Made by a program: the position numbers and the translations under genes
Source: a virus
Taxonomy: Duplodnaviria > Heunggongvirae > Uroviricota > Caudoviricetes
IMG/VR virus record: IMGVR_UViG_2713896899_000010
DNA: 4,448 nt
Direction: 5' to 3' (one strand)
The notes under the pieces: generated by a model
Databases searched by the model: none
What the model saw: the letters and a program-made list of their open reading frames with translations, nothing else
What the model was told of the DNA's origin: nothing
Shown here: one piece after another, positions 1,165 through 1,197 of the stretch
How positions within the stretch are numbered: position 1 is the first letter of the stretch
How the letters are laid out: each line of letters begins with the position of its first letter

Positions 1165-1197
1165 ATAGTAAGAAATGTAACAAACAAGTTACAGCAA
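1165..1197 (-). promoter_or_regulatory. PRE-like CII-activated promoter: TTGC-N6-TTGT (complement of 1184-1197) flanking a -35 position, candidate -10 TACTAT (complement of 1165-1170)
   Basis: Lambda PRE has TTGC-N6-TTGC at the same offset (+10 to +23 from the cII ATG) on the bottom strand. Here one repeat reads TTGT. Confidence 0.4.

Follow-up and report, generated by a model that had tools for sequence, protein, structure and literature searches.

CII and the P22 protein C1 recognise the sequence TTGC-N6-TTGC/T (PMC2629481). The same form appears in PMC10345575, which cites Ho et al. 1992. For the box of phi24B, a single-base departure from lambda has already been noted in print.

PRE, the repressor-establishment promoter, is where CII first turns on the repressor gene. 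In lambda, its CII box TTGCGTTTGTTTGC occupies 38369-38382; with the cII ATG at 38360, it spans +9..+22 from the start of the gene. It is a direct repeat of two tetrads separated by a 6-nt spacer, placed on the strand antisense to cII and oriented towards cro and cI. The -10 hexamer AAGTAT lies 13 nt past the proximal tetrad and is itself followed by TTCC. We take the lambda PRE start to be at 38343, 7 nt after the -10. In P22, the C1 site TTGCGAGTGCTTGT is found at 32045-32058 and the c1 ATG at 32036, which again gives +9..+22. Its -10 is GAACAT. In the P22 record, TTGCGAGTGCTTGT carries the label 'P22 C1 protein; activation of PRE'. The box of phi24B, 933W and HK022 is TTGCTGTAACTTGT, with TAAGAT or TACTAT as the -10. 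Phage 21 (lambda imm21) and VT1-Sakai have the perfect box TTGCTGTAGCTTGC with TAATTT as the -10; in the VT1-Sakai record the box is annotated 'CII protein binding site'.

The locus described here belongs to a stretch of viral DNA of 4,448 nt, which we analysed whole and refer to as the window. It contains a lambdoid immunity and replication region with the following features, those of PRE being predicted.

54..767, minus strand: lambda-type cI repressor, the gene that PRE would express
868..1068, plus strand: lambda-type cro, to which a PRE transcript would be antisense
1158, minus strand: predicted PRE start, 7 nt after the -10 by the ungapped lambda register
1170..1165, minus strand: predicted PRE -10, TACTAT, which follows the proximal tetrad after 13 nt
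1175..1474, plus strand: cII homolog (ATG 1175-1177, stop 1472-1474)
1197..1184, minus strand: predicted CII-binding direct repeat of PRE, TTGCTGTAACTTGT, in the lambda/P22 register
after cII: small ORF
1637-2413: HTH replication-initiator gene
2521-4401: toprim/DnaB-like primase-helicase gene

The cI equivalent in relatives is annotated as a LexA family protein. Positions 54-1082 of the window are 92.5% identical to lambda 37227-38255. Because this lambda homology (cI-OR-cro) stops at ~1082 and homology to Stx phages of the phi24B/Min27 type starts at ~1150-1160, the region is a typical mosaic. Read leftward, the joint at 1150-1160 comes right after the PRE core, which therefore moves together with its cII allele. 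According to a tblastn search of 50,697 phage records, the window's cII belongs to the phage 21/HK022/933W allele family. Judged by its sequence, the source is a lambdoid phage or prophage, in which a lambda-type cI and cro are joined to a cII allele of this family.

An earlier note on this DNA had described a TTGC-N6-TTGT repeat on the bottom strand of 1184-1197. The minus strand does read TTGCTGTAACTTGT from 1197 to 1184, with TTGC at 1197..1194, the spacer TGTAAC at 1193..1188 and TTGT at 1187..1184. The note had also recognised a PRE-type CII box at the lambda offset from the cII start, and the correspondence is exact: +9..+22 from the ATG (1175) in the window as in lambda. The box runs antisense within the first cII codons, of which it covers codons 4-8, and the cII start codon falls between the box and the -10. 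The N6 spacer is at the same time the nominal -35 hexamer, a 2/6 match to TTGACA. From this hexamer (1193..1188) a 17-nt spacer (1187..1171) leads to the -10, in agreement with the note's TACTAT (complement of 1165-1170) 17 bp away. Relative to the predicted start, the box would occupy about -39..-26. A generic sigma-70 consensus scan called PR (815-843) and none at the PRE site, which fits a -35-less, activator-dependent promoter.

A MAFFT alignment of the window with lambda placed a gap in the box region; the ungapped register anchored on the ATG was used instead. In this register the two bottom strands are as follows.

Window: TTGC TGTAAC TTGT TTGTTACATTTCT TACTAT TTCC
Lambda: TTGC GTTTGT TTGC ACGAACCATATGT AAGTAT TTCC

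The window shares with lambda the direct repeat and its 6-nt spacer, the strand antisense to cII, the distance to the -10, the TTCC that follows it and the orientation towards cro and cI. It differs in the proximal tetrad, TTGT instead of TTGC, and in the -10, TACTAT instead of AAGTAT; the two cII alleles are only ~40% identical. With P22 it shares the offset and the form TTGC-N6-TTGT, the T being in the promoter-proximal tetrad of both, whereas the spacer and the -10 differ and C1 is ~37% identical to the window's CII. The box of phi24B, 933W and HK022 is identical to that of the window and belongs to the same cII allele family; the -10 is the same or close, and CII is 83-100% identical. In these phages, however, cII is intact (codon 2 GAA, ACA or similar), while the window has TAA. 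Phage 21 and VT1-Sakai have the window's cII allele family and layout, with CII residues 15-77 identical, but differ in the perfect box (Ala4 GCA, not Thr4 ACA) and in the -10.

The half-site was followed through two overlapping IMG/VR sets. One consists of 83 relatives, namely 80 IMG/VR loci and three E. coli prophages (UMNK88, O121 RM8352 and E2348/69), and the other of 80 IMG/VR loci. Every close relative compared has the repeat at its PRE region, a comparison already suggested in the earlier note, and always in the form TTGC-N6-TTGT (83/83 and 80/80). The three E. coli prophages carry an intact 99-aa cII with the same tetrads, and the gene is intact in the relatives checked for it. In the N6 spacer, the position corresponding to 1188 is G or A; the tetrads are constant. 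CII identity is 94% or more for these relatives, and the box is inside the coding sequence, so that the invariance of the tetrads is by itself a weak argument. The module further upstream is replaced outright among relatives. Their -10 reads TACTAT, TAAGAT, TATGAT or TAATAT at the same place, with A2 and T6 always kept. In all 14 alleles compared, the 13-nt distance from tetrad to -10 and the A2/T6 positions are maintained despite differing N-terminal peptides. This spacing and the identical +9..+22 offset in lambda and P22 speak for an assignment of the site to PRE.

Beyond the close relatives, boxes of both forms occur.

TTGC-N6-TTGT: phi24B, EDL933-Stx (933W), HK022, Shigella 75/02, SPN9CC and P22
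TTGC-N6-TTGC: lambda, lambda imm21, VT1-Sakai, Edwardsiella GF-2 and Erwinia phiEt88

The C/T difference in the proximal tetrad is a polymorphism of cII codon 4, GCA (Ala4) or ACA (Thr4). With this cII allele, as in P22, TTGT is the usual form; it lies within the accepted consensus and is not decay.

The bare motif TTGC-N6-TTGY is found twice in the 4.4 kb of the window, against 0.71 expected and with at least two occurrences in 32/200 shuffles; it is statistically unremarkable. The composite TTGC-N6-TTGY-N13-WANNNT is found once, against 0.03 expected (5/200 shuffles), and this single match sits at the one place that lambda and P22 predict.

The earlier note had called cII broken, and codon 2 (1178-1180) is indeed the ochre codon TAA, by G1178T, where relatives have GAA (or sense codons of the ACA/GCA type). 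Position 1178 is T in the window and G (or A) in all relatives. Past codon 2, no further stop interrupts the frame before 1472-1474. Because the next in-frame start, Met36, lies inside the DNA-binding region, CII is almost certainly null in the window. The intact CII of a relative matches Pfam PF05269 (Phage_CII) with E=1.9e-34; the form of this allele with GAA at codon 2 is represented by WP_000438537.1. Structures of lambda CII are 1xwr, 1zpq and 8igr, the last of its activation complex. With TAA at codon 2, a functional cognate CII was not found on the same element, a result that concerns the trans-acting factor and not the site. Counted from the predicted start, the substitution is at about -20, within the spacer of PRE, and touches neither the tetrads nor the -10. 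An exact-match search for the TAA allele returned none in 5,426 complete E. coli genomes, GTDB representative genomes, IMG/VR and JGI metagenomes; the cII allele to which this activator box belongs is very common and is present in about 800 of these E. coli genomes. G1178T may be a real mutation or a base-call error.

Altogether, 1184-1197 is very probably the activator-binding part of the PRE of a lambdoid phage or prophage, with TTGT as a normal variant, the cis element intact and CII knocked out. The sequence, its register with lambda and P22, its conservation and the nonsense codon are direct observations; that CII binds here, that the promoter is active and where it starts we infer by homology. 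A CII tetramer would bind both tetrads of TTGC-N6-TTGY, which flank a very poor -35, from the DNA face opposite RNA polymerase, as the biology of lambda and P22 suggests. It would recruit the polymerase to the -10 TACTAT (1170..1165). The site is on the minus strand, leftward-upstream of cro (868-1068, plus strand) and cI (767..54, minus strand), and a transcript starting near 1158 would proceed leftward, crossing cro in antisense before it reaches cI. Because of the ochre codon at cII position 2, PRE would be silent unless a compatible CII were present in trans.

A PRE activator box of the form TTGC-N6-TTGT is already known and ordinary. For annotation, a CII box of this form should not be counted as degenerate: P22, HK022, 933W and phi24B have the same. 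Specific to this element is only the cII ochre codon, which predicts either a phage of the clear-plaque type, poor at establishing lysogeny alone, or a prophage in which a function no longer required has been lost.

In lambda, changes in the TTGC tetrads reportedly weaken PRE, as the cy mutants attributed to Place et al. 1984 are said to do, and TTGT is for this reason perhaps a weaker site. Whether it is a tuned one is doubtful: we see only a modest chance that this PRE was set to need more CII than the perfect PI and PaQ sites in the same genomes. If it were, the C/T (Ala4/Thr4) polymorphism, which separates the otherwise identical CII alleles of 21/VT1-Sakai and 933W/HK022/the window, would set different lysogenisation thresholds among Stx and other lambdoid phages.

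The earlier note regarded one half-site as changed. It does differ from the TTGC of lambda, but TTGT falls within the published consensus TTGC-N6-TTGC/T, and neither of the two readings that the note attached to the change holds up well. According to one of them, CII proteins of this type have a slightly different site, that is, this CII would have co-evolved to prefer TTGT in the proximal half-site. Such a shift could be reflected in the recognition region, ESKISRTDW against KSQISRWKRDW in lambda CII, and in the fixation of TTGT in this allele group. Yet the TTGC-type imm21 and VT1-Sakai and the TTGT-type window, 933W and HK022 do not differ at all in CII residues 15-77, helix-turn-helix included: the same core is found with a TTGC-N6-TTGC PRE. 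Conversely, P22 C1 has a different recognition region and also has TTGT at PRE.

The other targets of CII, taken from the CE10 prophage and from IMG/VR loci carrying the window's cII allele, also argue against a preference for TTGT. They are perfect TTGC repeats, some identical to those of lambda PI and PaQ. In genomes with this cII allele the PI repeat, TTGCGTGTAATTGC, has the sequence of lambda PI and precedes a lambda-type xis by 13 nt. Four Q alleles contain antisense perfect repeats: TTGCGAGCACTTGC (the sequence of lambda PaQ), TTGCGTGGCTTTGC, TTGCGAGGTCTTGC and TTGCGTGCAATTGC. The first three have TAGTAT, TAGGAT and TAAGAT, respectively, 13 nt further on, and the last, from the CE10-type Q, has CTTAAT, without A2; a -10 thus stands behind 3/4 of the Q repeats. 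In 1.16 Mb of such loci, perfect TTGC-N6-TTGC occurs 78 times on the minus (leftward) strand and 15 times on the plus (rightward) strand. In the first 30 kb of phi24B no PI- or PaQ-like repeat was found, and int is in the opposite orientation. Given the perfect repeats at PI and in Q and their strand bias, the CII of this allele evidently acts on canonical TTGC repeats, and the one-base variant at its own PRE is a tolerated one. We consider a co-evolved specificity improbable.

The other reading took the half-site as a sign that the establishment circuit is degenerating: TTGT would be a decay lesion, and PRE would be eroding together with cII in a resident prophage that does not need this circuit. 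The window's cII has its nonsense codon, and cII is dispensable for the maintenance of a prophage. Against this, all relatives with an intact cII have TTGT, as do the temperate phages phi24B, 933W, HK022 and P22, and between 1140 and 1230 position 1178 is the sole difference of the window from its nearest relatives. Decay of the site is thus very unlikely; the nonsense codon in cII is the only evidence of decay.

It is likewise very improbable that the repeat only reflects the codons required for the CII N-terminus (Thr-Ser-Tyr-Ser-Lys) and has no promoter function: the box does lie within cII codons 4-8 and variation among relatives is mostly outside it, but the corresponding peptides of lambda (Ala-Asn-Lys-Arg-Asn) and P22 differ with TTGC-N6-TTGY at the same nucleotide offset, the -10 keeps a fixed spacing in the non-coding leader, and the P22 and lambda sites are functionally annotated or characterised.

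The second TTGC-N6-TTGY match in the window is a perfect repeat, TTGCAGCACGTTGC, at 3745-3758 (minus strand) within the primase-helicase gene. We rejected it as a further CII site: it has CGCTTA at N13 and no -10, and one such match is expected by chance, which it probably is. Another perfect repeat, TTGCCTGAAGTTGC, recurs in nine relatives (L091 6373-6386 and eight other loci), on the minus strand, 1.2-3.0 kb to the left of cII. It has no -10 at N13 and lies on the same strand as the leftward ORF that contains it; the arginine-rich motif of this ORF makes it a candidate for an N antiterminator gene.

Downstream of cro, window positions 1077-1140 form a nutR-like region with a fold z-score of -2.85. 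A boxA-like CGCTCTTTA at 1077-1085 is followed by two hairpins, ACCGC-CGACAAC-GCGGT at 1094-1110 and one with a GAAA loop at 1123-1140; the region is kept in relatives carrying several different cro alleles. Where cII ends, the minus strand of 1420-1450 has a hairpin that, with its T-run, resembles a terminator. It falls in a segment (1410-1470) that is 86.9% identical to lambda 38592-38649, and its equivalent in the P22 record is annotated as the oop terminator; this hairpin probably ends an OOP-like antisense RNA. An Rfam scan of the whole window (E<=1) gave no match, and thus no curated family for the nut-like hairpins or the OOP-like RNA. Within the HTH replication-initiator gene, three tandem 21-nt direct repeats of GGGGTGGGGCAGGAGCTGACC, with spacings of 21 and 24, occupy 1926-1991. 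They resemble origin iterons (cf. lambda O) and also code for a repeated GGAGAD peptide.
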